Source: a virus
Lineage: Duplodnaviria; Caudoviricetes
IMG/VR virus record: IMGVR_UViG_3300010371_000007
Span: 1-57,735 of that record
Reading direction: 5' to 3' (one strand)
DNA: 57,735 bases
Part shown: in pieces, positions 42,036 to 57,735 of the stretch
Layout: each line of letters starts with the position of its first letter
How positions within the stretch are numbered: the first letter of the stretch is position 1
Made by a program: the position numbers and the translations under genes
The notes under the pieces: model-generated
What the model saw: only the letters and a program-made list of their open reading frames with translations
Databases searched by the model: none
Told to the model about the DNA's origin: nothing

Positions 42036-42059
42036 GATTGTGCTCCGTGAGAGGACGCG

Positions 42060-42076
42060 GTTACCGAGTCGGTAAC
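42060..42076. promoter_or_regulatory. 17-bp palindrome copy 3 (GTTACCGAGTCGGTAAC; extends to 42056-42080)
   Basis: Read directly; supplies the TAA stop of 42061..42249. Confidence 0.85.
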
Positions 42077-42249
42077 CGCGGTAGTGAACAACCCTTGACG
42101 CGCTTGAGCCTCGGGTTGGCTTTCTTCGCTTTGGTGGACGCACCACGCGCACTCGCGGCGAGGATGGCTTTCGCGCCCTTCATCGGGATGCCTTCCTTGG
42201 CGGCGATGGACGCGGCGGCTTTCTGGAAGCCGGGGTGCTTGCTGGCCAT
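42061..42249 (-). CDS. Small very basic protein
   Basis: HPGF...EG....A.AILA...NPRLKRVK; GGAG RBS. Confidence 0.65.
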   Translation of the reverse strand: MASKHPGFQKAAASIAAKEGIPMKGAKAILAASARGASTKAKKANPRLKRVKGCSLPRLPTR

Positions 42250-42258
42250 GCTGCTCTC

Positions 42259-42477
42259 CTACTGCTTGACACGGTTGGCGTGGGCCGAGATGACCCGCTT
42301 GTTGCTCGGCCTGTTGTTCATCGGATCGCCGTCCTTGTGATCGACGTGCTTGCCGTCACCCTTGTGCGCCTTTCCTTCGCGCATCGCTTGCCGGCGTGCC
42401 TTGTTGCGCGCCGCGCGCTCTTTCTTCATGCGCGGCGACGCATGGTACTTTTCGTAGTCCCCCTGCTTGTACCCCAT
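42259..42477 (-). CDS. Minimal HNH-motif protein
   Basis: HVDHKDG..MNN..SN.R......NR. Confidence 0.7.
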   Translation of the reverse strand: MGYKQGDYEKYHASPRMKKERAARNKARRQAMREGKAHKGDGKHVDHKDGDPMNNRPSNKRVISAHANRVKQ

Positions 42478-42480
42478 GGC

Positions 42481-42702
42481 TCAGCTCCGGCAGGGGTTGA
42501 ACGGGGCTCCGACGGCCTTCCCGTCCGCCTTGGTGGTCTCCGGACCTGCCTTGGCCGCCTGCTCGGTGACCGCGTAGTACGGGCGGTTGGCGTTCACGAT
42601 CGCCGCCTGCGCCGCGTTCGCCGCCGACTCCAGCTTCTCGTCGTTGTCGTTCGGGTCCTTGATCGGGGTGCTGCTCTTGGTGCCGCCCAGCTGCTTTGCC
42701 AT
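42481..42702 (-). CDS. Hypothetical protein (73 aa)
   Basis: GGAG RBS; strong codon bias. Confidence 0.6.
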   Translation of the reverse strand: MAKQLGGTKSSTPIKDPNDNDEKLESAANAAQAAIVNANRPYYAVTEQAAKAGPETTKADGKAVGAPFNPCRS

Positions 42703-42779
42703 GGTCTGCGCTCCGTGGATGGTCACTTGATGATAAGCGCGTTCAGGGCGCGGCGCTACTGCCATGTTCCTACGCGCGG

Positions 42780-43073
42780 TCAGTCGTCGACCATGTTTGC
42801 GTTGCTTGCCTCGGCACGAAAAACCGGCTGCCCATATGCCTCGCCGATCTGCGCCCACCGATAACCGACCTTCGGCAGCCGCTTGCCGTTCGGCGCGCAG
42901 TAGTAGTCACTCCCCAACACGTACACCGAGGGCGAAGTGAAGCGGGTCGGCTGATACCGGCACTCACTCATTTCGGCAAGGTCGTACCCGCGCAGGAACG
43001 CAATGCGCTCGGCGGCCGTCACTCGGCGCGCAGTCTGTGCAGGGGTTTCGGGTGGCGCGTCTTTGTGGGTCAT
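42780..43073 (-). CDS. Hypothetical protein
   Basis: AAGGAG RBS; tightly packed. Confidence 0.6.
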   Translation of the reverse strand: MTHKDAPPETPAQTARRVTAAERIAFLRGYDLAEMSECRYQPTRFTSPSVYVLGSDYYCAPNGKRLPKVGYRWAQIGEAYGQPVFRAEASNANMVDD

Positions 43074-43076
43074 CTC

Positions 43077-43607
43077 TCACTCCTTCTCGGGCTTCGCTGA
43101 TCCCTTTTTAAGCATTTCACGAGCAAGACTAAATGCCTTTTCTCGCGCATTCTTAGGCCATATGGTTTCGGGCTTCGGGGCAGCGGCGAGCATAGTAATC
43201 ACTCGCTCTACTCGCTGCGCCCACCCAATATGGGTGAGGCGATTGTTGTTCCCTGCCTGTTGTCGCATGTCATAGGCAAGGTTTTTCAAGGCGATCAGCT
43301 CAGCTTCCGGCACCCGCGCACTCGCCAGCATCGGCGCGACGGCTTCAAGGGCGGCGCGCATGGCTGCGTTGTCAGACACATTGATGCGGCCTTTTCGTGA
43401 AATGATTTCGATACGCGCATCCACTGCTCGCTCCACCATTTCATCCGTCACCGCCGCCTTCGCCGATTCGCGCTCGCGCAGGAGGGCGTCGATGGCATCG
43501 GCCATGGCATTAAGTCTGCCAGCGCTTTCGAGAGAGTTAGATTCATACTCTTCTGTAGCCTCGCTTCGCAGCCAATCACGCACCTGCTCCGCTGTGTATT
43601 TGCTCAT
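43077..43607 (-). CDS. Hypothetical protein (MSKYTAEQVR...), mosaic with lower-GC patches
   Basis: GAGGA RBS, ATGA overlap; VTDEMVERA segment. Confidence 0.6.
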   Translation of the reverse strand: MSKYTAEQVRDWLRSEATEEYESNSLESAGRLNAMADAIDALLRERESAKAAVTDEMVERAVDARIEIISRKGRINVSDNAAMRAALEAVAPMLASARVPEAELIALKNLAYDMRQQAGNNNRLTHIGWAQRVERVITMLAAAPKPETIWPKNAREKAFSLAREMLKKGSAKPEKE

Positions 43608-43819
43608 GGCTGTCCTCGCTGTGTGGTCTGGTACGCGAACGGTTCGCCGCGTACGTCGGGGTTGGTGACGCGAACCTCGCGTCGGTTGCGCATGCCGCGC
43701 AGGCAGGCGTTGACGCCCTCTTCCGCGATGCCGGTGATCTGCGCGATCTCCTTGGTGGTGTAGGGGCGACGCTCCGTCATCGCGGCCTTGATCTTGAGGT
43801 GGGTGTCCGTGCGTTTCAC
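43604..43819 (-). CDS. Small winged-HTH-like protein (71 aa)
   Basis: YTTKEIAQITGIAEEGVNACLRGM...VRV...Y; GGAG RBS before GTG. Confidence 0.6.
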   Translation of the reverse strand: MKRTDTHLKIKAAMTERRPYTTKEIAQITGIAEEGVNACLRGMRNRREVRVTNPDVRGEPFAYQTTQRGQP

Positions 43820-43821
43820 GA

Positions 43822-44148
43822 CTAGCTCCAAGCCCGACGCTCGCCGTCGGGGTGTATCGGGTTGAACGTGCACCAGCCACGACCATGGGCGTGGGGGAAA
43901 CTGTAGCCGCTGCATCCGGAGTGGTCCGGACGGCAGGTGCCTGTCGACCGCTGCTCGCGACCGCTGTTGCGGTACGTGTCGACGCGCCATGTCGGCGGAA
44001 ACGGACGTCCCTTCCGGTCGGCCTTGTCGAACGCGCGGCGCTCCAGACGACAGCCACACCGCGGCACGCGGGTGTAGTGCTCCGGGTGGTCCGCCAGCGT
44101 GCGGCGTCGCCCGCAGAACCGACACCGGCAACGCGTGCGGGCTTTCAT
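43822..44148 (-). CDS. Cys/His-rich Zn-binding protein
   Basis: CRCRFC, C-x-C, C...C-GYSFPH...C. Confidence 0.6.
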   Translation of the reverse strand: MKARTRCRCRFCGRRRTLADHPEHYTRVPRCGCRLERRAFDKADRKGRPFPPTWRVDTYRNSGREQRSTGTCRPDHSGCSGYSFPHAHGRGWCTFNPIHPDGERRAWS

Positions 44149-44621
44149 GGCTTGGCCACCCATGCAGACGGCGGCTTGACCGGCGTGCTGCCCAGTGCAC
44201 CGGGCTCGGGCGTGGTATCCGCCTTCGCTTCAGCCGCCTCGTTGATGTGCTGCAGGTACGCGTCGACGCTACCGAACCGATCGATGGTATCGACCAGCTG
44301 CGTGACGGTTGCCTCGTCCTGCTGGATCTGCTCCGCAGCAACGATGACACCGAGTGCCTTCGCCATGTTGTAGACGTTGGCGACGGCGCCTTGCGGTAGC
44401 CAGTCGGGCATGTCGACGTGGCGCGGCTTGCCGACGCGCGTGGCGTACGGACGGCACCCGGCCGATCCACACGACTTGATGCGGCCGGCGCGCAGGTTCG
44501 AGCGCAGCACCCACTTCTGGCGCCCGCAGGTGCACTCGACGAGTGCGGTGTCGCCACCGTAGTCCGCGACGACTTTCAGCGCGCCGTAGTGGGGGTCGAG
44601 GGGGGATCGTGGCCGTGCCAT
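44145..44621 (-). CDS. Protein with N-terminal Zn-ribbon (C-x-CG...SCG..C)
   Basis: GALKVV...CTCG...SNLRAG-IKSCG resembles N-terminal modules of HNH/AP2 endonucleases; no nuclease motif seen. Confidence 0.55.
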   Translation of the reverse strand: MARPRSPLDPHYGALKVVADYGGDTALVECTCGRQKWVLRSNLRAGRIKSCGSAGCRPYATRVGKPRHVDMPDWLPQGAVANVYNMAKALGVIVAAEQIQQDEATVTQLVDTIDRFGSVDAYLQHINEAAEAKADTTPEPGALGSTPVKPPSAWVAKP

Positions 44622-44623
44622 GG

Positions 44624-45193
44624 TCAGCTCCGGTTGGGGTGATTGATGGCATCGATGTTCATCACACCGACGAAGGGGACGGTAACCGTGCGCGGCTCGA
44701 ACCGCCGGCGTGGTCGGTTGCACTGTCGCAGGAACTCCTCGCTTTCGAGGAGCGGCCATGCGCGGGCAAACGTACGCTCCCATGGCGGGTATCGACCGGC
44801 GAGCCGCCATATCACAGGGTCCATGGGCAGGGCGTTCCTCGCCACCCAGCGGCGGAGGTGCCTCCGAAAATTGTCCTGCGATATGTCGCTGAGCTCGATG
44901 CACGTGACACCCTCCACGATCAGATACGCGTCGTGGAATTGCGCGTCCAGCTGCGCGACGCACTCCCCGACGATGTTGTCGATGGAGATCTCGTGGAAAT
45001 CGCTGTCGGCTGCGTCGTCGAGCGCGCAGTCGGGGCGTAGCAAAAACGCTATCCCATGGCCATTGGCGAACGCGTCGATGTCACTGTGATTGATGGAGGG
45101 GTCAGCGAAGAGAACCGTGAAGTCACGACGTATCGCGCAGCTGCGCCGTTGGAACCTGTCCACACTACGACGCACGCAGGAGTTGATTTTCAT
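44624..45193 (-). CDS. Hypothetical protein
   Basis: GAGG RBS, ATGA overlap. Confidence 0.5.
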   Translation of the reverse strand: MKINSCVRRSVDRFQRRSCAIRRDFTVLFADPSINHSDIDAFANGHGIAFLLRPDCALDDAADSDFHEISIDNIVGECVAQLDAQFHDAYLIVEGVTCIELSDISQDNFRRHLRRWVARNALPMDPVIWRLAGRYPPWERTFARAWPLLESEEFLRQCNRPRRRFEPRTVTVPFVGVMNIDAINHPNRS

Positions 45194-45537
45194 GTCCGCT
45201 TCCTCGCAAACATCCACGCCATCGCCAGTGCGAACCCATCGCGATCCGCGTTCAGGACGGACCCAACCATCGGACCGAGCGCGGTCAGGAGCGTCTTGTC
45301 CGAAAGCAGCTGCCAGATGTCCGGGTGCGGGTCGATCCCGGCTTCACGCATGTTGTTCGCCATGGCTGTCGCTGCGCGCCGCCACTCGCGACGCGACAGC
45401 TTGCGACGGACACTAGACGACCCACCCGCACCTGTTGCGTATTGGACGTAGGATGTTCTGATTGTTTGGCTCACTGTTGCCTCTACTGCAGCACGGTCAT
45501 ACAGGATTTGGGGAAACCGCTTCACCTTCGAGCCCAT
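45190..45537 (-). CDS. Hypothetical protein
   Basis: Starts just after the upstream stop and is coupled to the next gene. Confidence 0.5.
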   Translation of the reverse strand: MGSKVKRFPQILYDRAAVEATVSQTIRTSYVQYATGAGGSSSVRRKLSRREWRRAATAMANNMREAGIDPHPDIWQLLSDKTLLTALGPMVGSVLNADRDGFALAMAWMFARKRT

Positions 45538-45538
45538 G

Positions 45539-46411
45539 TCACAACCCCATCGACGCCATGCGGTCCACGATCGACTGCGCCGTCTGCCGTGCCTCCGCCG
45601 CGACCATGATGCTGCCGCGCAGGTCGTCGACGTCGTACCGGCACAGCTGGCCATCCAGCGCGCTGTGCAGTGCCTTCAGCTCCGGCGAGTCGAACACGTT
45701 GAGGCTGGCCATGAGTGCCACCGTCTCACGCAGGTTCGACACCAGCGTGTAGGTGAACTGCTTGTTCTTGCCATCGGCCGTCGGGGTCAGTCGCTCCAGC
45801 ATGCGCTCGACGTTCTCGCGCAGGCGGGTGAACGCCGACGCCTGTGCGTCCTCGAACTGCGACTTCACCTGCTGCGCGTACTGCTCGTTCAATGCCCTCA
45901 CCTGCTCGGGCGACAGACCGGTGCGCACGTCGTCGTAGCCGGCGGGGAGTGGCGACAGCGCGGTCGCCATGGAGAACTTCGCACGCACCTGCTCGGCGCT
46001 GGGATAGTCGTTCACGTCAGCCATGTCGCCGAGCGCGGCGATCGACTTCGCCATGAGTGTGGGGTAGTCCGCGACGAACGCGTCAGCCGCTGCGGAGAAC
46101 TCACGCTCCACGCTGCCCAGCTCGCCGAGCAGGGTGAACAGGGTGAGGTTCGACACGAGACGATTACCTGCGGCGTCCCACGGCAAGGTGTGCTCCTCGA
46201 CCAGATCGCGGGCCTGCCGCGCGAGCCGGGCGATGTTTTTGAGCTGCGTGTCCGCCTCGGCCATGAGGTACTTGTTGACGCGGCTGGCGTTCACCGACGC
46301 CGACTTCTCCGTGTTGAGTTCGGCGGTAACGGTCTTGTCCAGCTTGCGCGCCGCCCACTGCGACACGGTGAGGTAGATCAGCTGGCTGGAGCTATGGATA
46401 TCGTTGTGCAT
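45539..46411 (-). CDS. Conserved helical phage protein (DUF3150-like) linked to the AAA/vWA pair
   Basis: W.ARK.D...K.L...TLPW...R.V...YP...DYP pattern; GGAG RBS just below palindrome 4. Confidence 0.65.
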   Translation of the reverse strand: MHNDIHSSSQLIYLTVSQWAARKLDKTVTAELNTEKSASVNASRVNKYLMAEADTQLKNIARLARQARDLVEEHTLPWDAAGNRLVSNLTLFTLLGELGSVEREFSAAADAFVADYPTLMAKSIAALGDMADVNDYPSAEQVRAKFSMATALSPLPAGYDDVRTGLSPEQVRALNEQYAQQVKSQFEDAQASAFTRLRENVERMLERLTPTADGKNKQFTYTLVSNLRETVALMASLNVFDSPELKALHSALDGQLCRYDVDDLRGSIMVAAEARQTAQSIVDRMASMGL

Positions 46412-46428
46412 GAGGGTTCTCCGAATGG

Positions 46429-46445
46429 GTTACCGAGTCGGTAAC
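46429..46445. promoter_or_regulatory. 17-bp palindrome copy 4 (GTTACCGAGTCGGTAAC)
   Basis: Read directly; 18 nt above the 46411 start. Confidence 0.85.
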
Positions 46446-46639
46446 TAGTAGGGTAGTTCGGTGTAGCGCAGCGTGTACGTGTACCCCGGCTTCTCGCGTT
46501 TTCTAAGCGCGGCGTGTAGATCAACCCTGCGGTCCGCGTAGATACGAACCACGTGCGGCTGCGTTACTGCGGGATGCCAGTACTCGCCGTGGAACACGTA
46601 ACAGATAAGGCGATCAGCAGATTTTGATGTTTCGTCCAT
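46445..46639 (-). CDS. Small hypothetical protein
   Basis: Fills the gap between two genes; start uncertain. Confidence 0.4.
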   Translation of the reverse strand: MDETSKSADRLICYVFHGEYWHPAVTQPHVVRIYADRRVDLHAALRKREKPGYTYTLRYTELPY

Positions 46640-47753
46640 AGGGCGCCTGCACCTCCGTCGTCATCGCCCAGATCACCGGGCGTTTCGGTCCCTTCGTGAA
46701 AGCCGTATAGCCATCCGTGAGTACGGCGATGACGTCGCACTTATCATCGACGGCGTTCTTGATGCCACACTCCATGTCGGTGCCACCGCCACCGGGTACG
46801 GGCTTCGACAGCATCTGGCGCAGCTGCTGACCCGACTTGATCGTGTCCACGCGGTGGACCTTCGCATCGGTCCAGTACACGCGGATCTCGCGCGGCTTTG
46901 CGTCCGACAGGATCGCACCCATGTGCGAGCCGAACAGCTGCAGCAACTCGTCGCCGATACTGCCGCTGGTGTCGACCACCACGCCGACCGGGCCGCAGGC
47001 ATACCCGGTGCGACCGGGCATCACCACGCCGCGCGACATCATGTGCCGGTTGAGGCGGCGCCACGTCGTCGTGTCGTGGCCGCGCATGGCGCTGATGACG
47101 GCTTGCCGCAGCCTCGCCCATGGCGAGTGCTTGGGTCGGATGATGCTGCCGATCAGGCGCTCGATACCGGCCGGCACGTGGCCGAGCGCCTTCGCGGTCT
47201 CGAACGCCGACTGCACGTCCTGCGGCTGGATCGCGTTCTGTTTCTGGTTGCCCGCGGCGCCATCGGAGATGTGCGTGTCGTGGCTCTGCTGGGCGCCACC
47301 CTTGCCGCCACCGCCCTTCGGCGGGTTGGACGGCAACGCCTCGTAGATCTCCGCCGGCGTCATGGTGTGTGGGTACGCCGCGTCCCAGCACCAGCCCGCA
47401 CCGATCGTGCCGATGCCGTTCTGTTTGATCAGATCGTTGATGACGTAATCGGCGGCGCGGTTGTACTTGTCCTGTTCGTAGGGCTTGCCGTCCGGGCCGA
47501 TGCCCGACTCGTGGTACATGTCCATCTCGACGAGGTGCGCGAACATGCCGTGCATGACCTCGTGCGTGATGGCGGCGATGCACTCGTCGTCACTGATCGA
47601 CTCGATGAATGCCGGGTTGTAGTACATCGTGTCGAGCGAGACGGCGAGCGTCGGGAACCGATCGGTCGGCTCGATCTTGAACCGCGTGAGCAGCTGACCG
47701 AAGAACGGCTGCGTGAGCATCACCGCGGTGTATGCGTCATCGAAGATAGCCAT
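46614..47753 (-). CDS. HExxH metallopeptidase-like + vWA (MIDAS) protein, DUF2201-type
   Basis: HEVMH, N.A.D..IN, VVVDTSGSI, GGGTD, LTDG. Confidence 0.85.
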   Translation of the reverse strand: MAIFDDAYTAVMLTQPFFGQLLTRFKIEPTDRFPTLAVSLDTMYYNPAFIESISDDECIAAITHEVMHGMFAHLVEMDMYHESGIGPDGKPYEQDKYNRAADYVINDLIKQNGIGTIGAGWCWDAAYPHTMTPAEIYEALPSNPPKGGGGKGGAQQSHDTHISDGAAGNQKQNAIQPQDVQSAFETAKALGHVPAGIERLIGSIIRPKHSPWARLRQAVISAMRGHDTTTWRRLNRHMMSRGVVMPGRTGYACGPVGVVVDTSGSIGDELLQLFGSHMGAILSDAKPREIRVYWTDAKVHRVDTIKSGQQLRQMLSKPVPGGGGTDMECGIKNAVDDKCDVIAVLTDGYTAFTKGPKRPVIWAMTTEVQAPYGRNIKIC

Positions 47754-47754
47754 G

Positions 47755-47931
47755 TCACTTCACCTCTCGGGTCTTGACGTCAAGCACGCGCTCTTCGTCG
47801 GGGATGCGACCGCGTACCTGCAGATCCATAGCGGTGTTGGAGGCGCCGTCTTTTGAAAATGCCGTAACGTAATAGACGCGCTCCGTCAAGATCGCAACGC
47901 GATAACGCGGAATATGCGTGTCGTGTGTCAT
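47755..47931 (-). CDS. Small hypothetical protein (58 aa, MTHDTHIPRYRVAIL...), not in the ORF track
   Basis: Open frame translated by hand that fills the gap between the AAA and vWA genes. Confidence 0.55.
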   Translation of the reverse strand: MTHDTHIPRYRVAILTERVYYVTAFSKDGASNTAMDLQVRGRIPDEERVLDVKTREVK

Positions 47932-47934
47932 GAC

Positions 47935-49038
47935 TTACCCCTTCTTCACGCGCAGGTGGCGCGACAGCTTCTGCACCATCGTCTTGTTGTCGCGCACCCA
48001 CTCCGACAGTCCCTTGGCGCGCGAGAACGACGCGTCGCGATTCAGCAGCGCGGCGATGCCGACGATGGCGAAGTTCGCATCGAACCGGGTGAGGTACTTC
48101 ATCACGGGGTCGCCGTCGGTGTCCTTGGCGCGCATCGCCGTCATCATGAGGCTGGCGTACGCCTCGTCCGGCTTGCTCGGCACGGGCACCTTGTCCGGCG
48201 TGGCGACGATCTCCTCGTACGTGGGCAGCTTCGATGCCATCGTGATGACGCCGTACAGCTCGGCCGCCGCGCCGTCGCCGACGAACCCACGGATCACCGC
48301 CATGCCGGCCGGCTGGTCGATCATCGCGATCAGGCCGTTCGGCCAGCGCGCCGCCACGTTAGACAGCGCCTCGACCGAGCGCGGCGTGCAGTACGGCTTG
48401 TCCGCGACGGACAGGTCGGGCGCACCGAACACAGTGCCCGGCCGGATCTTCGCGAACGCCATCAGCTCCGGCATCACGCCGGCGCCGGCGGCCCACTCCA
48501 GCCAGTCGTCCACTTCGGGCGGCGCGACGTCGATCAGGCACATGCGGTTGATGACGTGCGACAGCAGGTCGTTCGCGCCGGCGTTGTCCTCGGTGCGGTT
48601 GCCGGCGCAGCACAGCATCCAGCCGGGCGGCAGGACGTACTCGCCAATGCGCCGGTCGAGCAGCAGCGGCGCGACTGCCTTCTGCATCTCCGGTGGCGCT
48701 TGCGGGAACTCGTCGAGGAACAGGATGCCGCGGGCATGCTTCGCGACCTGCGAGGCGAACGGCGGCGTGGTGAACCGCGCCTCACCGTCGGTCGGGATCA
48801 GATACCCGCGCACGTCCACCTCGGACATGCTGGCGAGGTGCAGCTCGATCACGCCGACCTCGGTGTGCGCATCGCCGATCGACTGCATCCACGCGCCGAT
48901 CTGCCGGGCGCCTTCGTGCACGAGGTCGGTCTTGCCGCAGCCGGGCTGGCCGCGGAAGTACGGCGTGCGGCCGGAGCCATAGAACGCCATGAGGACCGAG
49001 GGGATATCGGTGGAGCGGATGGACTGCTTCATGTTCAT
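47935..49038 (-). CDS. MoxR-like AAA+ ATPase
   Basis: GQPGCGKT, LFLDE, AGNR..D, TPRS. Confidence 0.88.
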   Translation of the reverse strand: MNMKQSIRSTDIPSVLMAFYGSGRTPYFRGQPGCGKTDLVHEGARQIGAWMQSIGDAHTEVGVIELHLASMSEVDVRGYLIPTDGEARFTTPPFASQVAKHARGILFLDEFPQAPPEMQKAVAPLLLDRRIGEYVLPPGWMLCCAGNRTEDNAGANDLLSHVINRMCLIDVAPPEVDDWLEWAAGAGVMPELMAFAKIRPGTVFGAPDLSVADKPYCTPRSVEALSNVAARWPNGLIAMIDQPAGMAVIRGFVGDGAAAELYGVITMASKLPTYEEIVATPDKVPVPSKPDEAYASLMMTAMRAKDTDGDPVMKYLTRFDANFAIVGIAALLNRDASFSRAKGLSEWVRDNKTMVQKLSRHLRVKKG

Positions 49039-49058
49039 GAGGGGATTCCTTGGTTGGA

Positions 49059-49075
49059 GTTACCGACTCGGTAAC
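49059..49075. promoter_or_regulatory. 17-bp palindrome copy 5 (GTTACCGACTCGGTAAC)
   Basis: Read directly; in the leader between the promoter and the AAA start. Confidence 0.85.
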
Positions 49076-49110
49076 CATGCCAGCAGACCGCACGTCTGCT
49101 GGTATTGTGT

Positions 49111-49139
49111 ATATTACATTTAACTGGTGGTTAAGTCAA
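49111..49139 (-). promoter_or_regulatory. Sigma70-type promoter for the AAA/vWA operon
   Basis: TTGACT-N17-TAATAT on the minus strand. Confidence 0.75.
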
Positions 49140-51888: not shown

Positions 51889-52214
51889 GACACGATCCTC
51901 GGTGTGGCCCAGTCGGCGGCGTAGCCCGGTGCGAACCGCGCACCCACGGTCATGTGGTTCATCGCCTCGTTGATCGTCTGCGTCAGCTCGATCGCACTCA
52001 GGTCCGCGAGGTGGTCAACGTCCACGACGTAGTGCCGCTGCATCTGCTTCAGCATGCCGACAACGCCCAGCTGCAGCACCTGCATGGCGGGGACGTCGGG
52101 TGCGTTCTCACGGTGCGCGCACTCGACCACCGTCGCGGCGTATCGCTCGCCGATGGTGGCGCATGCCACCACGAACCGCCCTTGCTGCACCAGCTTCTCG
52201 TAGTCACGATTCAT
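51885..52214 (-). CDS. Hypothetical protein
   Basis: GGAGG RBS immediately below palindrome 6. Confidence 0.65.
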   Translation of the reverse strand: MNRDYEKLVQQGRFVVACATIGERYAATVVECAHRENAPDVPAMQVLQLGVVGMLKQMQRHYVVDVDHLADLSAIELTQTINEAMNHMTVGARFAPGYAADWATPRIVS

Positions 52215-52569
52215 TGCACACCTCCGTTACCGACTCGGTAACCGGCGCGGCAACGGAATCCACCAGCTTCGACTTCTCGCGGTCGATGGACGGGAGCGCT
52301 GCGGCAGCGTCGGGCGCCGGCTGCGGCAGCGCGGACAGCTTGATGCCGAGGATCGCCAGCTCATGCTCGATCTTGCGGGCGCGGTCGGCGAACACCGAGC
52401 GCACCTCGTCGACGGTGAGCCGCAGCGTGACGTCGCCTACATCGGCGTTTACGGTGGCGCTGTTGTCGTGCTGGGCAAGTGAAGCGATCACGCGCTCGAT
52501 CTGTTCGAGATCGAGCAACAGGGCCGCGGTGCGCTTGCGGTTGTCGGGGCCGTACAGGACACAGGACAT
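52204..52569 (-). CDS. Hypothetical protein
   Basis: AGGAG RBS. Confidence 0.6.
   Translation of the reverse strand: MSCVLYGPDNRKRTAALLLDLEQIERVIASLAQHDNSATVNADVGDVTLRLTVDEVRSVFADRARKIEHELAILGIKLSALPQPAPDAAAALPSIDREKSKLVDSVAAPVTESVTEVCNES
52226..52242. promoter_or_regulatory. 17-bp palindrome copy 6 (GTTACCGACTCGGTAAC)
   Basis: Inside the 3' end of 52204..52569 (codes VTESVT); adjacent to the next RBS. Confidence 0.85.
52304..52360. repeat. 57-bp direct repeat, copy A
   Basis: Matches 53105-53161 with one mismatch. Confidence 0.9.
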
Positions 52570-52571
52570 GG

Positions 52572-52844
52572 TTAAACTCCTAGCCGGCCGAGCAGATGCT
52601 GGCCTTCGGCGTGTGGGTTGAGGTAGTAGACGGGAACTTCGAGGAAGAACTGTGCGGCGTCTTCAGGAAGCCGGTAGTTCAGGTATTTGAGGTCGAGGTA
52701 GGCCCTCCCCGGTAGCTGCCGAAACGAACAACCGATGGTTTGCGCCAGCTCCGTCAGCTGGTAGAACAACGCCGTGTCTTCGTCGTCGAGCACGATGAAC
52801 CGCTTCATCCATCCGGGTTTCGCGAACTCGAACGCGCGGATCAT
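52572..52844 (-). CDS. Hypothetical protein
   Basis: ATGA coupling. Confidence 0.6.
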   Translation of the reverse strand: MIRAFEFAKPGWMKRFIVLDDEDTALFYQLTELAQTIGCSFRQLPGRAYLDLKYLNYRLPEDAAQFFLEVPVYYLNPHAEGQHLLGRLGV

Positions 52845-53095
52845 GGGTCACCCATTGCAGCGATGATGTGTAGCAGTGCAGCTGCTTGTTCGTCCGGCAT
52901 CACGAACACGGCGACGGTGGGCACCGGGCGAGCCGTTTCACCGGACGCCACGACAATGTGCTGGAAGAACGCCAGCTCGTTCAGTGCTACCAAGGACGCC
53001 GTGCTGCCCTTGCGAGCGACCACTTCGCATATCAGTCCCTCGGACATGGCGCACCGCGAGTCGTACAGGCGGTATATCCGGAACTCCTCGTTCAT
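52841..53095 (-). CDS. Hypothetical protein
   Basis: ATGA coupling. Confidence 0.55.
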   Translation of the reverse strand: MNEEFRIYRLYDSRCAMSEGLICEVVARKGSTASLVALNELAFFQHIVVASGETARPVPTVAVFVMPDEQAAALLHIIAAMGDP

Positions 53096-53454
53096 GGCGC
53101 CGGAGCAGCGTCGGGCGCAGGCTGCGGCAGCGCGGACAGCTTGATGCCGAGGATCGCCAGCATGAGCGCGTCGTACGACTTGACGATGCGCTGCAGGCGA
53201 TCGCGCTCGATCTGCAGATCCTTGATCGCGCAGCGGCGCTGCGTCAGTTCCTGTCCCTGCACGCGCAGCATCGCCTTCGCGCGGCTCACTCGGTTACTCA
53301 GGTCCACGTTCAACAGCGCAAGCCGATCAAGCTGCGTGGTGAGTTGTGCGATGGTCTGTTCCTGCGCGGTGACCTGCGCCTCCAGCTGCATGTTCTCGGA
53401 CAGCAAGTGGTCCAGCGCGCAGTCGGATTTCGTCGGAACGATCAGGTTCGTCAT
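53092..53454 (-). CDS. Coiled-coil protein (120 aa)
   Basis: GGAG RBS; heptad repeats. Confidence 0.65.
   Translation of the reverse strand: MTNLIVPTKSDCALDHLLSENMQLEAQVTAQEQTIAQLTTQLDRLALLNVDLSNRVSRAKAMLRVQGQELTQRRCAIKDLQIERDRLQRIVKSYDALMLAILGIKLSALPQPAPDAAPAP
53105..53161. repeat. 57-bp direct repeat, copy B
   Basis: Matches 52304-52360 with one mismatch. Confidence 0.9.
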
Positions 53455-53528
53455 GGTTGTTTCTCCGTGAGGGTGAGTGGCCAACAGGGTCATTTTTGCA
53501 TGAAAAACTTTTTGATGATAAGTGACCG

Positions 53529-55043
53529 TCACAGCAGTGCTGCGATGGTGTCGACCTCGCTCGCGGGGATGTCGTGGCAACCGATCACGAGCGATCCATC
53601 CGTGCGGATCGTGGACAGGGGGTAGTTACCGACCCGGTAACCTTCGGCCGTCAACCGCGTCGCCAACTGGGTCGTCCCTTCCACGTCACCACGAACACGC
53701 TGCAGCAGGCGCCACAAGCGACGCGCCGACTCCGCCGGAACACGCGCACCCCAGCTCGTCTCGACGACATCCCCGACCAACCGCAGCAGCGGCGTGGTGG
53801 TGTGGCCGATGCTCCCCATCCCCGCACGCCATGCGTCGACGGCTGCCGCCTCACGCGCTGCGCGGTTCGCTTCCCACTCGGCGAGTGCCTCTTCCGCAGC
53901 GACGCTGCGTTCTGCCAGTGCAGACAGCTGGACGTTGATGGGGTGTGTCGGCGGGAACGCCGCCATGTCGCGAACAGTCTTCTGGTACATGGCCAACCAC
54001 GACGCCAGCTGCGGCATGTCTACCGTGGCCGTTCCGCGAAGTGCGACCAACCGTTCCTCACAGTCCGCGACGACGGCTGATCGCTCAAGCCGCCGACGCA
54101 GGTCGACCACGCGCGCCGGGACGGGGATACCACAATAGCTCGCGATGTTGATGCTATGGTCGATCCAAGCGCCGCTGCTCGTATCCTTCCGCGTGTCGCG
54201 CTGCGCGCGCTCCGTCGTCTGCCACGCGCGCCGCAGGTTGTGCATGGCGGCCGTGCGGCGTTCTTGTCGGATCTCTGCAGTCACCTGCTGCCGCACGGCC
54301 TCGATCTGATCGACGGACGGTACACCTTGCGGACGCACGAACCGTTTCCCGCACTCCTTCGCGAGCAGCTGCAGCTGACTGACTGCCTGCGCCAGACTGT
54401 CCAACGCATGCTCCCGTGACGACAGGCTGAGCGCAGCATCGGAGGCCATCTCCCAACCGCGCACCGCGCGACCAACCGCGTCGGCACGACGCGCCGCACG
54501 TGACGGCTCGCCGAGCGCCGCTGCTCGCTTCGCCCATGCGTCGACAGGCAGGCCCAGTGCGTTGACCACAGCACGGTGCAATGCTGCCATCCCGCGCTGG
54601 CGCGGCGCCCGCTGGATCATGCGCATGGCATCGTCCAGCCGCTGGTGCGCGGTATCGACCAGTGTCTCCCTTACGAACGACTCGCGCTTTTTCGCCGCGG
54701 CCTGCCGGTACTTCTCGCTGGCGTCCCGCACCAGCCACGCCGCCAGTCGCCTCTCCCAACCGTCACGCTGCAGGTCCATCGCATGCAGACTCTCGCACTG
54801 GACCACGGTCGCGCCACGGGGTATCGCTCGACGCACCCACGACTGGTGTTTGCTCGTCGTGATGCTGAACCGACCCACGTCGACCACGAACAACGTGGGT
54901 GCAACACGAACGGCGATGGTGGTGTTGTAGCTGTACAGTATGCCGCCCGCGAACGACACGTTCCCTCCGGGGTTACGCGCGCTGTCCTGTGTGGCATGTG
55001 CCCACAGGTGGGCAATCTCAGTGGATGGATACACGGTCTTCAT
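53529..55043 (-). CDS. Large early protein of unknown function (504 aa)
   Basis: GAGGAG RBS; EIAHLWA...YSY...TTSKHQ and VETS-GA-VP...IGCH-I segments look like conserved motifs. Confidence 0.7.
   Translation of the reverse strand: MKTVYPSTEIAHLWAHATQDSARNPGGNVSFAGGILYSYNTTIAVRVAPTLFVVDVGRFSITTSKHQSWVRRAIPRGATVVQCESLHAMDLQRDGWERRLAAWLVRDASEKYRQAAAKKRESFVRETLVDTAHQRLDDAMRMIQRAPRQRGMAALHRAVVNALGLPVDAWAKRAAALGEPSRAARRADAVGRAVRGWEMASDAALSLSSREHALDSLAQAVSQLQLLAKECGKRFVRPQGVPSVDQIEAVRQQVTAEIRQERRTAAMHNLRRAWQTTERAQRDTRKDTSSGAWIDHSINIASYCGIPVPARVVDLRRRLERSAVVADCEERLVALRGTATVDMPQLASWLAMYQKTVRDMAAFPPTHPINVQLSALAERSVAAEEALAEWEANRAAREAAAVDAWRAGMGSIGHTTTPLLRLVGDVVETSWGARVPAESARRLWRLLQRVRGDVEGTTQLATRLTAEGYRVGNYPLSTIRTDGSLVIGCHDIPASEVDTIAALL
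53625..53641. promoter_or_regulatory. 17-bp palindrome copy 7 (GTTACCGACCCGGTAAC)
   Basis: Inside the coding sequence (YRVGN), about 100 nt before the stop. Confidence 0.85.
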
Positions 55044-55103
55044 GGTGTAGCTCCTCAAGGGCCGATGGCCCGTTGGCTATGTGCCGATGGCACAGGTGGT
55101 GAA

Positions 55104-55685
55104 TCACTTCGCGGTTACCGACTCGGTAACCGTCACGGACGGCGACGCCCGCATCTCGTGCAGTATCTCATCGGCCAGCTGCCGCGCTTCCTCCATGATG
55201 TTCGCCTCGCTGCCGGGCAGACCCCAGTCCATGCCGCCCAACGAGGACGACCGCTCTGTCGGCGCGCCGTACGCATCCTGCAGCGCCACGGTGACGACCG
55301 CCCAACACCAGTCGTCGCGCAGCCAGCCACGCAGGGTATCCATGTCCTGCTGCACAGCCAGCGCCGCGATGCGCCGACGCGTCAACGGCAGCCCGCGCAG
55401 CAGCTGGTCGCGGCGTGTCTCGTCACTGATCCCCCACCCATCGCGCAGGGCGGTCTGCTGGGCCTTCTGGACGTCGTACACCCACGCCGTGCCGTCGTCG
55501 ATGTGCAGCACGCGCTCGCCCGGCGCGGTCGGACAGTGGACATGCCCTCGGAACGTCCGTTCCTCGACCGGTCCGTGCCCGTCGTGCTCGATCCACGGGG
55601 GACCCATGCCGCCGTCCCGATCGACCGCCACGAGGAAATGACGTCCGCCATACGCGAGCGGCTCGATGTGCAGTGTCCCGATCAT
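55104..55685 (-). CDS. Early hypothetical protein (193 aa)
   Basis: ATGA coupling; LRGW..D.W...V.V...SLGG pattern. Confidence 0.65.
   Translation of the reverse strand: MIGTLHIEPLAYGGRHFLVAVDRDGGMGPPWIEHDGHGPVEERTFRGHVHCPTAPGERVLHIDDGTAWVYDVQKAQQTALRDGWGISDETRRDQLLRGLPLTRRRIAALAVQQDMDTLRGWLRDDWCWAVVTVALQDAYGAPTERSSSLGGMDWGLPGSEANIMEEARQLADEILHEMRASPSVTVTESVTAK
55114..55130. promoter_or_regulatory. 17-bp palindrome copy 8 (GTTACCGACTCGGTAAC)
   Basis: In the last codons of 55104..55685 (VTESVT). Confidence 0.85.
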
Positions 55686-55831
55686 GGCGACACCCCCAGC
55701 AGGCGGGACAGGACGAGGACGGCGGCGAGCAGCGCACCGCGGACGAGCCACGGCACGACGTTGACGGTGTGCCGCCGGACTGGCGCGGTCGGGTATCGGA
55801 ACGTGGGGGTGACGCGGTGGGTGCGGCTCAT
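55682..55831 (-). CDS. Small TM peptide (49 aa)
   Basis: ATGA coupling; C-terminal hydrophobic helix. Confidence 0.5.
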   Translation of the reverse strand: MSRTHRVTPTFRYPTAPVRRHTVNVVPWLVRGALLAAVLVLSRLLGVSP

Positions 55832-56037
55832 GACGCGAACGCCATGCAGTCGGCGAACGGGACGCCCGCCGCCACGTCGCAGCCGATGGCGTAGGCCACG
55901 TCGGCTGACACGTGCGACGCGCACCAGCGCATCTGCCAGAGGGTGAGTGGCATGGTGGTGAACCCACGGTACGCGAACTCGCGGACGAGTCCGTCTACGT
56001 AGTCGCGCTCTTCGGGTGATCGACTCTGAACGTTCAT
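55828..56037 (-). CDS. Early hypothetical protein
   Basis: AAGGAG RBS just below palindrome 9. Confidence 0.6.
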   Translation of the reverse strand: MNVQSRSPEERDYVDGLVREFAYRGFTTMPLTLWQMRWCASHVSADVAYAIGCDVAAGVPFADCMAFAS

Positions 56038-56059
56038 GACGCTAGCTCCTTCAGGCTAG

Positions 56060-56076
56060 GTTACCGACTCGGTAAC
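56060..56076. promoter_or_regulatory. 17-bp palindrome copy 9 (GTTACCGACTCGGTAAC)
   Basis: Read directly; intergenic. Confidence 0.85.
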
Positions 56077-56142
56077 CGGTAAGGTCAGCGCGTCGCCGTC
56101 GCAGACGGTGACCACGCGGACTGAGGGTGTATCACGGGGTAC

Positions 56143-56922
56143 TCACCGCAGGCGGGACCACGGTACGCGCGGCCGAGATCCGGACGCTTTCCAGTCGCAT
56201 ATCGTGTCGCCGTCGACCACGGCATGGCTGTAGACGCGGCCATGCCGCGTCACCCGTGCCCGGTCGCACACGGTGGCATGGGCGCACACCACGGCGTCGC
56301 CCTCGACGATGGCACGGTCGCGCACCACGGCGTGGCTGTACACGCGGGCACGGTCACGGATGACCGCCGTGCCGCGCACCTGCGCATCGCCTTGCACCTG
56401 CGCCGCGTCGATCACCATGGCATCGTCGTACACCCAGCCGTCGCCGTCGTGCGACAGGTTGTACTCCGACTCGACCCAGCCGCCGACGTCGCCCTCGTGC
56501 ACTCGGTTGTCGCCCACACCGAACGGGATGATGGCGACGATGCGATGCAGTACGCGGTTCGGGTTGTCCCGTGTGGGCAGGGGCAGTGTCGCGCCGGTCA
56601 GTGCGTATTTGGGTTCGCCACGCTTGCGCTGGTGCGGCTGCGGATTCGCCGTGTAGGCCGGGGGCAAGACGATCGATGGCTTCCGCGCAGGGTGCAGGGC
56701 CAGCCACTTCGCCACCGCCTCGTTGTAGCGCTTCAGGGACGGCCAGCGCTCGACTGGAATCGTCCGGGGGTCGACGGTCGGGTCGAACGTGGCGAACGCC
56801 TGCGGGCTGGCAGGGCGCGGGGAGTGCGGTTCGCTGAACGCCGGATCAAGCGGACCGGGCAGGGCAGGGGGGTCGATGGGGATGATGGGCAGGAACGTGC
56901 GTTCGCGGGGTAGGCGGGGCAT
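56143..56922 (-). CDS. First early gene: Pro-rich N-terminus + left-handed beta-helix (hexapeptide) domain
   Basis: GGAGG RBS; G..GGWVESE.NL...WVYDDA followed by V.G.A.V hexad repeats. Confidence 0.75.
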   Translation of the reverse strand: MPRLPRERTFLPIIPIDPPALPGPLDPAFSEPHSPRPASPQAFATFDPTVDPRTIPVERWPSLKRYNEAVAKWLALHPARKPSIVLPPAYTANPQPHQRKRGEPKYALTGATLPLPTRDNPNRVLHRIVAIIPFGVGDNRVHEGDVGGWVESEYNLSHDGDGWVYDDAMVIDAAQVQGDAQVRGTAVIRDRARVYSHAVVRDRAIVEGDAVVCAHATVCDRARVTRHGRVYSHAVVDGDTICDWKASGSRPRVPWSRLR

Positions 56923-56965
56923 GAGTGGCCTCCAGTGAGGTGGATGGTTACCGTGGCGCCATGCG

Positions 56966-56982
56966 GTTACCGAGTCGGTAAC
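56966..56982. promoter_or_regulatory. 17-bp palindrome copy 10 (GTTACCGAGTCGGTAAC)
   Basis: In the leader below the major early promoter; extra half-site GTTACCG at 56947-56953. Confidence 0.85.
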
Positions 56983-57018
56983 CTGCGTTCGGTGGGCACG
57001 GTTCTCTCAGATGGTCAC

Positions 57019-57047
57019 ATTATTACACGAAACAGGTGTCGTGTCAA
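57019..57047 (-). promoter_or_regulatory. Major early sigma70-type promoter
   Basis: TTGACA-N17-AATAAT with extended -10 TG. Confidence 0.75.
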
Positions 57048-57049
57048 GG

Positions 57050-57612
57050 TGCTGGGTGGCCGTGAAACGGCGAGCGTAGGGCGCGTTTCGATATACTTGG
57101 GTACGGTGGGTGAAAAGAGGGGTGGTCCCCATTTATGGACCCATGAGGGGTTTTGGGCGCAAATCGTGTGCCCCGAAATCCCGCCAAAAGTCGCGCATAG
57201 GTTCAATTTTTTCTCAAACCAAATCCGTTAAACTTATACGATTCTATATAACTCTAGTTACCTAAAAATAGATATATATATAGTGTTTTGTTCGTGTACG
57301 CGTTTGTTCATGCTGTGCAGCTGCTGTACGTCGTGGCGTACGAGCTTTTTAAAGGGGGTGTTTAATTTTACAATTAAAGCTGTCGTGCATGCACGAGGCA
57401 CTTTTATGGCGTTAGAGTCTATAGCGAAAAACACGCTTGAATCGTACAAAGTACTCTGTAGAGTGCCAAACATACATTCTACGATTTTTTATTTTGCGTG
57501 TTTTGTGACGTAAGGTTCTACAGCCGATTTTTTTCAATACTTACATTTCGAGACTTTTATGCTCGTGCGTCACCGCGTGCCGTCGCCATACATGACGTTA
57601 GTGCTGAAACTT
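57050..57612. other. AT-rich non-coding region (candidate origin or genome-end/packaging region)
   Basis: Sharp drop in GC, T-tracts and a TA run near 57270, no credible ORF. Confidence 0.55.
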
Positions 57613-57735
57613 ACAGCCATCTAGTCTTTTGTTTTTGCGTTGTAGAACGCCACAGTCATTTAACTTATCATCACCCGCCTGCCGCTGAGTTACCGACCCG
57701 GTAACTTCGGCGGACTAGCGCGCTCAAACCGCAGG
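57613..57735. repeat. Direct terminal repeat / circular overlap, right copy
   Basis: Identical to 1-123; includes the duplicate palindrome copy at 57689-57705. Confidence 0.95.

Follow-up and report, generated by a model that had tools for sequence, protein, structure and literature searches.

A conserved palindrome in the early arm of a podophage-like virus and its relatives, possibly the binding site of a dimeric protein

The first-expressed arm of this soil phage carries ten exact copies of the palindrome GTTACCG-N3-CGGTAAC, whose half-sites TTACC and GGTAA reappear in members of a large podophage-like family. The sites are real and kept by purifying selection, they belong to the phages and not to a host chromosome, and their behaviour is not that of selected hairpins. 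We give a probability of roughly 40% to the reading that they are double-stranded binding sites of a dimeric protein, serving as operators or roadblocks for the early transcription units.

Results

Palindromes in the early arm

The window, i.e., the whole 57,735-nt stretch of viral DNA analysed, contains 11 exact matches to the motif, corresponding to 10 unique sites and a terminal-repeat copy, since a 123-bp direct terminal repeat closes the record and site 57689 thus duplicates site 77 (Table 1). No match is expected by chance, as 100 dinucleotide-preserving shuffles yielded none. The 7-bp inverted arms, separated by a 3-bp gap, are exact in all ten copies, and the motif scan returned the same coordinates as the sequence-only reading, as well as its two types of centre in both orientations: ACC/GGT at three sites and ACT/AGT at seven, with RGT on the gene (minus) strand at 6/10 sites and ACY at 4/10, therefore without orientation bias relative to transcription. 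The symmetry reaches 8 bp around a single central base in 7/10 sites (i2), which counts for a DNA site, as a hairpin loop cannot use it.

All ten palindromes lie 0.7 to 4.4 kb apart within the 16.6-kb minus-strand early arm, upstream of the replication genes; by our arithmetic, the chance of finding all of them in 16.6 of 57.6 kb is about 4e-6 if they were randomly placed. The relaxed core TTACC-N3-9-GGTAA finds the same ten sites and no others in this genome, and allowing up to two mismatches adds a single match between 1088 and 42055 (position 1749, GTCACCGGAGCGGTGAC). The count, position and confinement of the palindromes are confirmed.

Six sites had been described as lying shortly upstream of a start codon, and on our own gene calls they stand 11, 17, 20, 22, 24 and 43 nt before an ATG. 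The described overlaps with coding sequence are likewise present, namely VTESVT twice, YRVGN once and a TAA stop that the 42060 arm provides. Of the three sites said to accompany clear sigma70 promoters, two lie 29 to 46 nt downstream of promoters called by our scan (49139-49111 and 57047-57019) and are the only ones of the ten near such a promoter; the element beside 1071, with TACAAT as -10 and only 3/6 matches at -35, was not called, and in our reading the distance between its -10-like hexamer and the palindrome is kept in the two collinear relatives G006 and G007. At the AAA_5 gene, the distance from palindrome to start codon is kept in three genomes (20, 16 and 15 nt) and the distance to the promoter is not. 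None of the ten palindromes, judged as possible intrinsic terminators with a U-tract after the stem, was among the terminator-like hairpin hits. Sites 1071 and 77 are probably untranscribed, because the former is upstream of a promoter-like element and the latter downstream of a terminator-like hairpin.

Table 1. Palindromes and neighbouring features in the window
Coordinates	Strand	Feature	Centre or sequence	Context	Orthologues
77..93		palindrome	ACC	downstream of the terminator-like hairpin that trails gene 243-986	
1071..1087		palindrome	GGT	divergent intergenic region; abuts upstream edge of weak promoter-like element of gene 243-986	G006 711, G007 221
42060..42076		palindrome		supplies the TAA stop of ORF 42061-42249; 24 nt upstream of ATG at 42035	G006 42323, G007 43226; homology on 5' flank only
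46429..46445		palindrome		17 nt upstream of DUF3150 gene; 170-nt strain indel begins at site edge	G006 46690, G007 47791; homology on 3' flank only
49059..49075		palindrome		5' leader of AAA_5 ATPase gene, 20 nt upstream of ATG	G006 49470, G007 50085
52226..52242		palindrome		within 3' end of ORF 52204-52569 (VTESVT); next ATG 11 nt downstream	
53625..53641		palindrome		within ORF 53529-55043 (YRVGN), 96 nt before stop	
55114..55130		palindrome		within 3' end of ORF 55104-55685 (VTESVT), 10 nt before stop	
56060..56076		palindrome		intergenic, 22 nt upstream of ATG at 56037	
56966..56982		palindrome		about 30 to 46 nt downstream of strongest promoter-like site; 43 nt upstream of ATG 56922	
57689..57705		palindrome		repeat of site 77 in the 123-bp terminal repeat, not independent	
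243..986	-	gene		247-aa helical protein, lies between sites 1071 and 77	
200..229	-	terminator-like hairpin	12-pair stem + T run	after gene 243-986	
1041..1070	-	weak promoter-like element	TTGCAG-18-TACAAT	adjoins site 1071 (our reading)	
49077..49105	-	leader hairpin		between promoter and palindrome	stem sequence differs in G006/G007 yet still pairs
49111..49139	-	sigma70-like promoter	TTGACT-17-TAATAT		kept in G006 and G007
57019..57047	-	sigma70-like promoter	TTGACA-17-AATAAT + TG, 11/12 matches	head of early arm	

Conservation and variation among relatives

The half-sites are the same in distant relatives at only 25 to 50% protein identity. Copy number ranges from 0 to 68 among the genomes given, with eight copies in G006 and seven in G007, all of them in the early arm too (8/8 and 7/7), 24 to 34 copies of the core in distant relatives including Rhizobium phage RHph_TM27A, and the highest number in G010. 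The core is present in 4/17 surveyed relatives; many others have no motif or another palindrome instead, and the 98%-complete relative G008 (60% capsid identity) has no copy. Conservation was borne out at four sites (1071, 42060, 46429 and 49059), which are orthologous in this phage, G006 and G007 and whose arms are unchanged against a background nucleotide identity of about 70%, whereas the centre and spacer differ.

The spacer is N3 in 10/10 copies here, N2 in 8/8 in G006 and N2 in 6/7 in G007, and this uniformity within each of the three genomes fits a reader with fixed geometry. Mixed spacers occur in G001 (18 N3 and 6 N2) and, for the TTACC core, in RHph_TM27A (26 N6 and 8 N5). G010 keeps 5-bp arms only, and many of its copies overlap the ribosome-binding site. 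In the distant relatives, site density is highest in the early and replication arms. Across nine genomes, 53/126 sites extend at least partly outside a CDS (16 expected), and 37/126 stand no more than 40 nt before a predicted start (7.6 expected). The other 73/126 are intragenic, some of them far into large structural genes, and sites within conserved proteins fit the reading frame with no indels. The arm's TAA doubles as an upstream stop codon at 42060 and also in several relatives. The gene content between palindromes is mostly clade-specific.

A comparable motif density was sought in host DNA, using a Bradyrhizobium genome that carries a related phage (G026), and the motif proved rare in the chromosome: of 13 matches, 9 fall in a phage contig of 60.5 kb and 4 in the remaining 8.6 Mb; a reversed control pattern gave 13 matches. 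The same 17-mer forms a six-copy array within 200 bp inside the Phage_rep_O initiator gene of an unrelated provirus (G003), where the copies are read in frame as VTESVT. Clustered repeats inside an initiator gene are the arrangement of lambda-type origin iterons, which are bound by replication protein O, and the array thus makes a protein-binding role for this 17-mer plausible.

DNA site or RNA hairpin

Stem extension beyond the core and covariation were sought in 199 sites and neither was found, the flanking positions being complementary at 57/199 (o2) and 50/199 (o3) sites, about the chance rate. The one-mismatch copies (n = 115) comprise 27 with G·U on the sense strand, 30 with A·C, 54 unpaired on both strands and 4 ambiguous; the near parity of G·U and A·C, together with the lack of pairing beyond the core, disfavours an RNA hairpin. 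Predicted RNA hairpin energies in this phage are -7.9 to -16.0 kcal/mol compared with a mean of -4.3 for random 23-mers, and the predicted G010 hairpins are barely more stable than random sequence (-5.9 vs -3.5 kcal/mol).

Search for a reader protein

Two gene products had been put forward as possible readers, and neither was supported as such. Homologues of the 243..986 product occur only in this phage's own clade, and a search for a DNA-binding family or fold gave no match; it is a candidate local regulator. The 43604..43819 product gave sub-threshold HTH hits only and has no homologue even in G006 and G007, which keep the sites. The stated lack of an integrase and CI was borne out in this record as far as Pfam PF00589 and PF01381 go, and the Pfam families HTH_3, ParB_N, Phage_rep_O and integrase were all absent from this phage, G006 and G007. 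A scan of 44 proteins of this phage gave no family-level DNA-binding match, no protein cluster across 16 genomes tracks motif presence, and iterating profile searches from 34 early-arm proteins produced no reader candidate. Nor did the scanned proteins yield a hit to a Y1 (IS200/IS605-like) transposase, the RAYT enzyme that mobilises REP elements. Only the core replication proteins are common to all motif-bearing genomes; over its C-terminal 190 residues the primase-helicase clusters according to phylogeny and not to motif, and the site-less G008 is 46% identical to this phage there.

Three known kinds of site and reader were also considered, and none was supported. A weak atlas lead to the phiC31 repressor family PF25746 (score 0.80) was not reproduced by Pfam hmmscan of 7 homologues with E up to 10. 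For a ParB/KorB-type centromere or operator, ParB_N (PF02195) was found in 0/5 records. For lambda O-type iterons, the sites here are dispersed, and Phage_rep_O (PF04492) was found in 1/17 records, only in the unrelated provirus.

Discussion

In the reading that we prefer, a dimeric, sequence-specific protein would recognise the palindrome on double-stranded DNA, each site presenting two TTACC half-sites about one helical turn apart. The sites would be placed at junctions of the first-expressed minus-strand transcription units, where the bound protein would most likely block, pause or insulate the host RNA polymerase in an operator- or roadblock-like manner, and the copy near -45 relative to the promoter-like element of gene 243-986 may be a classical operator or activator site. 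We infer that such a protein binds the sites, is a dimer, is encoded by the phage and affects transcription. The binding-site proposal of the sequence-only reading is therefore supported in kind, by the invariant half-sites, the absence of stem extension and of a G·U preference, the rarity in a host chromosome and the orthologous sites, but no reader protein was found.

Several observations sit less easily with an operator. No reader emerged among the searches made, spacers are mixed in G001 and RHph_TM27A, and scan-called promoters are near 2/10 sites only. The AAA_5 palindrome tracks the start codon, many G010 copies overlap the ribosome-binding site, and G008 is without sites. A broader alternative, which we hold unlikely, is an unrecognised genome-wide system in a large soil and rhizosphere podophage-like family, with the TTACC-Nx-GGTAA dyad as its cis element. 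Its reader would be of no known DNA-binding family, maybe a conserved core or virion-delivered protein, with which copy number (0 to 68) and spacer would co-evolve; rather than forming a classical repressor-operator pair, the system could time genome entry or expression, or drive cassette exchange.

The sites could instead act in RNA: each copy in the polycistronic early mRNA would fold into a 7-bp hairpin immediately before the following ribosome-binding site, to stabilise the transcript, direct its processing or couple the translation of neighbouring genes, possibly through a hairpin-specific RNA-binding protein or nuclease. The excess of sites outside CDS and within 40 nt before starts, the use of the arm TAA as upstream stop, the Shine-Dalgarno motif between the arms in G010, the stability of the hairpins predicted in this phage and the distance kept to the AAA_5 start codon all speak for it. 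We nevertheless hold it improbable, though the likeliest of the three rivals to the preferred reading: pairing ends at the core without covariation, G·U is no commoner than A·C and 54/115 variants are unpaired on both strands, the G010 hairpins hardly differ from random sequence, 73/126 sites are intragenic, with some deep in large structural genes, two sites are probably untranscribed, and a hairpin alone leaves the invariant arm sequence unexplained. The mRNA-hairpin alternative named by the sequence-only reading is accordingly disfavoured.

Slightly more doubtful is that the palindromes are joints at which related phages gain, lose or swap early cassettes, as proposed for the T4-type PeSL, with regulation secondary. 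On this reading synteny breaks would fall at the sites, and homology to G006 and G007 is one-sided at two of the four orthologous sites (flank scores 73/10 and 53/12 at 42060, 19/69 and 16/75 at 46429). Among the 15 listed of 53 joints, taken from contigs of other soil runs, four have an end no more than 5 nt from the edge of a palindrome (46445 to 46616, 49054 to 49059, 53640 to 53743 and 56079 to 56126), and one further joint links 56058 to 49055; the patchy distribution of the core in the family and the clade-specific gene content between sites agree with exchange. Strain indels flush with sites lend some support to the recombination alternative of the sequence-only reading but can also be explained by free spacers beside a conserved anchor, since in a short intergenic spacer indels fall beside the only conserved block and aligners anchor there; moreover, two of the four flush joints have undefined sequence between their ends, sites in conserved proteins overlay the frame without indels, 17 bp is short for homologous exchange, and few if any Cluster O repeats lie at rearrangements according to the accessible part of that report (PMC4351075). 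The least probable of the readings is a role in replication or genome organisation, in which the palindromes would load or bind a core replication protein (such as the 1024-aa DUF927 primase-helicase or one of two conserved proteins of 404 and 203 aa) or serve as condensation or partition sites read by a protein other than a classical ParB. The array in the Phage_rep_O gene, the density in the early and replication arms of distant relatives and the sharing of core replication proteins alone by all motif-bearing genomes suggest it; against it, the sites are dispersed and not clustered, the C-terminal primase-helicase residues follow phylogeny, including in the site-less G008, and ParB_N and Phage_rep_O are absent.

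Dispersed dyad repeats have already been reported in phages, e.g., in Cluster O, with no reader or function assigned. This case adds comparative leverage: the half-sites stay the same even in very divergent relatives, the spacer changes in concert from one close relative to the next, some lineages have no motif or another palindrome, and the motif is nearly absent from a host chromosome. Tractable material exists in the cultured Rhizobium phage RHph_TM27A with its 34 core copies and in related prophages of Bradyrhizobium isolates. Should the reader prove to be a DNA-binding protein of a new kind, or the sites a means of timing gene entry or shuffling cassettes, this would bear on how the early programme is ordered in lytic phages that have neither their own RNA polymerase nor a classical repressor.

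The Cluster A stoperators (L5 gp71) and the phiC31 CIRs are many short sites across transcribed DNA, mostly in short intergenic gaps, to which one phage repressor binds, halting the elongating polymerase or shutting early promoters. Stoperators are asymmetric and oriented with transcription, whereas the site described here is a perfect palindrome with an unoriented centre, and the cognate repressor gene is known in L5 and phiC31 phages, while none is detectable here (no HTH_3; 44 proteins scanned). The lambda-type array of the provirus shares with this phage the same 17-bp palindrome read in frame as VTESVT inside a gene; it has 6 copies in 200 bp inside an initiator gene, in contrast to the wide spacing and lack of Phage_rep_O here. 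The PeSL of T4-type phages are promoter/stem-loop cassettes flanking small variable early genes (PMC2839356, PMC4122927), and as far as the accessible text of these papers goes, they may resemble our motif in flanking such genes and in having indels between close relatives that end at it. They are composite promoter-terminator units of tens of bp, unlike the bare 17-bp palindrome, which has promoters called at 2/10 sites and flush joints (4 of the 15 listed of 53) that are confounded by alignment anchoring.

The closest analogue, functional and not homologous, is the 17-bp dyad repeat 5'-TGTTCGGNNNCCGAACA of Cluster O mycobacteriophages (Cresawn et al. 2015, PMC4351075), for which the authors, in the accessible part of the paper, predict a dimeric DNA-binding protein as reader, with reader and function not established, and mention stoperators in their discussion. 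In both, as far as that part of the account goes, invariant 7-bp arms enclose an N3 centre that varies but is biased; neither repeat is oriented to transcription (here 6 RGT vs 4 ACY), many copies are intergenic and about one third coding, and the phage is not obviously temperate. The arm sequence, phage lineage and host phylum are different. Cluster O has dozens of dispersed copies, more than 30 genome-wide and denser in the leftward non-structural arm, compared with 10 copies confined to 16.6 of 57.6 kb here, half-sites that persist at 25 to 50% protein identity, a spacer that shifts between clades and copy numbers from 0 to 68. As far as the Cluster O figure can be taken from the accessible text, its number of more than 30 copies genome-wide is reached by our distant relatives G010 (68) and RHph_TM27A (34).

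Palindromes of the early arm

The exact palindrome GTTACCG-N3-CGGTAAC occurs 11 times in the window and never in 100 shuffles, which upholds the repeat set proposed in the sequence-only reading, and since the copy at 57689 is the terminal-repeat copy of site 77, ten sites remain. All ten lie within 42,060 to 1,087 across the record junction, i.e., in the upstream 16.6 kb of the minus-strand arm, so that the claimed confinement to the early DNA holds. The six start codons said to lie close to sites were recovered at 11 to 43 nt from them, as were the coding overlaps, in which the palindrome is read as the peptides VTESVT (twice) and YRVGN and in one case an arm supplies a TAA stop codon. The claim that three sites accompany sigma70-like promoters stood in part: two sites are located 29 to 46 nt downstream of promoters called by our scan, while the third promoter, beside site 1071, was not called and by eye offers a TACAAT -10 element with a poor -35.

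Allowing up to two mismatches adds one symmetric variant and one overlapping match, and the looser core TTACC-N3-9-GGTAA returns the same ten window sites and no others. By themselves, GTTACC and GGTAAC show no enrichment: base composition predicts about 20 of these hexamers and 9 occur, so the unit is the dyad as a whole. Its symmetry reaches 8 bp around a single central base in seven of the ten sites. The palindrome set is real and under selection, and our preferred, still tentative reading, with a probability of about 0.4, is that a dimeric protein recognises the sites as duplex DNA and thereby acts on early transcription units.

Seven of the ten window centres, CGAGTCG or CGACTCG, include GANTC, the target of CcrM-type methyltransferases in Alphaproteobacteria; the centres in relatives are without it. 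This resemblance, and that of the flank to a BstEII-like GGTNACC motif, was dropped as not general across the relatives.

At 57,735 bases, the window spans a complete IMG/VR virus record, which has a 123-bp terminal repeat at its ends and a G+C content of 65%. Genes were called from GC-frame and codon usage and functions were assigned from family scans. No RNA polymerase was detected among the window proteins scanned, and the window and its close relatives G006 and G007 are without integrase, HTH_3 and ParB_N domains. Of the cultured phages, Rhizobium phage RHph_TM27A is the nearest relative; its capsid protein is 51% identical and its genes are arranged in the same order. No cultured phage gave a megablast match to 10 kb of the window.

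Table. Coordinates of features in the window and in related or compared genomes.
Genome	Feature	Coordinates	Strand	Remarks
Window	Portal, capsid protein, internal virion proteins with transglycosylase domain, tail fibres		mostly plus	Structural genes
Window	1683-aa protein			Structural set; DarB-like C-terminal part
Window	Many small genes without annotated function	~57,050 down to 30,700 (arm)	minus	
Window	AAA_5 ATPase, DUF2201 protein, DUF3150 protein		minus	After the small early genes
Window	DNA polymerase A, PD-(D/E)XK nuclease, SNF2 helicase, 1024-aa DUF927 primase-helicase		minus	Next in order
Window	Symmetric variant of the palindrome	1749		Up to two mismatches
Window	Match overlapping a site	52238		Up to two mismatches
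Window	HNH_3 protein, 72 aa	42259-42477	minus	85 to 86% identity in G006/G007, well above the typical identity of other shared proteins
Window	Replaceable segment, 170 nt	46446-46615		Lies between palindrome and end of DUF2201 gene; 6 nt instead in contigs of two other soil runs
Window	Small ORF	46445-46639		
Window	Leader hairpin	49077-49105	minus	Between conserved promoter and palindrome, upstream of AAA_5 ATPase gene; stem sequence differs in G006 and G007 with pairing retained, loop ACGTGCG kept
G003	Palindrome array	19550-19755 (L135, 9540-9760)		Unrelated provirus
G008	63-bp tandem repeat	24,057-24,640 (L149)		Inside a gene
G010	Tandem small paralogous genes	~39,000-49,000 (L232/L233)		About 250 to 300 nt each; common C-terminal ...EAQCLLN-like end; junctions TTACC..GGAG..GGTAA contain stop codon, Shine-Dalgarno motif and next start
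G009, G019, G011	Other dyads	L237-L253		Relatives without the motif
G026	Tyrosine integrase gene	59997-60461 (C42)		At end of 60.5-kb phage contig
G027	Split phage	C111, C166		End of 61-kb contig and start of 170-kb contig

Conservation and distribution among relatives

Two close relatives, G006 (capsid identity 85%) and G007 (82%), are collinear with the window; more than half of the genome aligns at a nucleotide identity of about 65 to 74%. Both keep the motif, as expected of a functional element in the sequence-only reading: GTTACCG-N2-CGGTAAC is present eight times in G006 and six times in G007, which has one additional N3 copy, and all these copies fall inside the equivalent early arm. 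Window sites 1071, 42060, 46429 and 49059 have positional orthologues in both relatives, in which the arms are identical, but centre sequence and spacer length, although uniform in any one genome, vary from one to another. Selection through a genome-specific reader protein of fixed geometry is the best explanation; ten independent neutral changes would be far less likely.

A pattern scan found the exact palindrome in at least 116 stretches of IMG/VR. Several many-copy contigs are distant relatives of the window phage, sharing terminase, portal, capsid, internal virion protein, polymerase, SNF2 and nuclease at 25 to 48% identity. Counted as the core TTACC-N4-6-GGTAA, there are 24 copies in G001 (18 at the window spacing and 6 one base shorter), 24 in G005, 11 in G002, 8 in G004, which also has many one-mismatch copies, 34 in RHph_TM27A (26 N6 and 8 N5) and 68 in the 64.8 kb of G010, with no match to the reversed control pattern in the records of these relatives. 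Here the sites occur genome-wide, even deep within large structural genes, with the highest density in the early and replication arms.

At least 590 capsid hits were obtained in IMG/VR, and not every family member has the motif. The core was present in 4 of 17 further capsid relatives surveyed and absent from 13, and G008, a 98% complete genome whose capsid is 60% identical, has zero sites; the 12-mer recurring there belongs to a tandem repeat and is no analogue of the palindrome. Three relatives lacking the motif have over-represented dyads of their own, i.e., TACTCC-N1-3-GGAGTA in G009 (9 to 10 copies), CTACT-AC-AGTAG in G019 (about 10 copies) and GATTC-N3-4-GAATC in G011 (13 copies), the last consisting of paired GANTC motifs.

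Possible roles as duplex DNA sites, RNA hairpins or recombination joints

If the palindromes acted at the RNA level as hairpins at gene junctions, which we consider unlikely, stable folding and a link to gene boundaries would be in their favour: window copies fold well (predicted -7.9 to -16.0 kcal/mol), and many copies in G010, some of them in the tandem paralogue family, enclose the Shine-Dalgarno motif and also supply the upstream stop codon. The stability of the G010 sites barely exceeds that of random 22-mers (-5.9 vs -3.5 kcal/mol). Complementarity just outside the core is at chance (57/199 at o2 and 50/199 at o3), as are the pairs adjoining the 5-bp arms in G010. Among 115 one-mismatch copies from nine genomes, 54 are unpaired on both strands; the sense strand would carry G·U in 27 and A·C in 30, the other 4 being ambiguous. 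A hairpin loop is unable to use the 8-bp symmetry around the central base, which further counts against a selected hairpin. Sites within the conserved polymerase and SNF2 genes overlay the reading frame without indels, which argues for their origin by substitution and not by insertion of an element. Pairing, mismatches, stability, symmetry and reading frame thus point away from a selected hairpin. By contrast, the leader hairpin upstream of the AAA_5 gene, a separate element from the palindrome, may be a genuine RNA or terminator-like structure, as its retained pairing suggests.

The sites clearly prefer intergenic DNA: in nine genomes, 73 of 126 are fully within predicted coding sequence (110 expected) and for 37 of 126 a predicted start follows within 40 nt (7.6 expected). 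This fits either a DNA site displaced from coding sequence into short spacers or an element linked to the junctions between genes. For the AAA_5 gene, the distance from palindrome to start codon is 20, 16 and 15 nt in three genomes, and that from the conserved promoter is variable; the palindrome therefore tracks the start codon, not the promoter, which we counted against a simple promoter-operator role.

The use of the palindromes as recombination joints appears slightly less probable than the RNA-level role. Synteny breaks at sites, which the sequence-only reading had proposed to look for, were seen in so far as 42060 and 46429 are homologous to G006 and G007 on one side only. When the early arm was compared with contigs of other soil runs, 4 of 15 joints, among those listed, were at most 5 nt from a palindrome edge; one of them is a clean swap of 170 nt for 6 nt starting at 46445, and as this segment is replaceable, the small ORF overlapping it is either dispensable or no gene. 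Another contig links 56058 to 49055 via 31 nt carrying the different dyad CGTGCCG-GT-CGGCACG. Joints at site edges keep a possible recombination role alive; however, short spacers offer no conserved block other than the palindrome to anchor an alignment, and aligners stop at it.

Sites for replication or genome organisation are the least probable of these readings; a part of the probability was given to none of the four. A parallel comes from the unrelated provirus G003, where a gene encoding a Phage_rep_O domain contains six palindrome copies (2 exact and 4 with one mismatch) within 200 bp, and the next gene encodes a DnaB helicase; the array resembles an origin of the lambda type whose iterons are in frame and encode VTESVT.

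Among known systems, stoperators and the phiC31 CIRs are defined by asymmetry with orientation and by a cognate repressor; these features were not found in the window, and the two systems serve as functional models only. Full-text literature searches yielded no paper on such a hexamer inverted repeat in a phage and nothing relevant on conserved stem-loops with early genes. The closest described counterpart is the 17-bp repeat of Cluster O mycobacteriophages, which the window palindrome resembles in its 7-N3-7 architecture and unoriented centre. This repeat has 34 copies, is denser in the non-structural arm and is of unknown function, with a dimeric DNA-binding protein predicted by its authors (PMC4351075).

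Search for a proposed reader protein, and host genomes

For the preferred reading of a dimeric DNA-binding protein, no reader was found. When gene content was tested for association with the motif in 16 genomes, no protein cluster followed it; the best candidate of this test, an 86-aa protein, is encoded in the head module and does not occur in the window's clade. By iterated profile search, no early protein of the window extends past its own clade. The protein encoded at 243-986, proposed earlier as a binder, is still the best local candidate, bracketed by two sites, one of which lies at a constant distance from a -10-like hexamer in three genomes. It is nevertheless clade-restricted, with only 6 database homologues and no remote homologue in a profile search of 13 other family genomes, and family, structure and fold comparisons were uninformative: its AlphaFold2 model has a mean pLDDT of 58.7 and gave no PDB fold match at E 0.001 or better, and there was no useful PDB sequence match. 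The HNH_3 nuclease was rejected since PF13392 is absent from the site-rich G001, G005 and G010 and present in the site-less G008, and the C-terminal domain of the primase-helicase tracks phylogeny, not the motif. The conserved 404-aa and 203-aa proteins have no PDB sequence match.

Capsid relatives are also present in bacterial assemblies. In Bradyrhizobium genome G026, 9 of 13 core matches fall in one 60.5-kb phage contig and the remaining 8.6 Mb hold 4, against 13 for a control pattern; the motif is therefore a phage feature and not a host regulon, in line with the low host density anticipated in the sequence-only reading, and a host transcription factor is an unlikely reader. A tyrosine integrase gene lies at the end of the G026 phage contig, and in the second Bradyrhizobium genome, G027, the phage is split between two contigs. 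Judged from these sequences, the relatives in both isolates look temperate, and such prophage-like members suggest that the family includes temperate phages.
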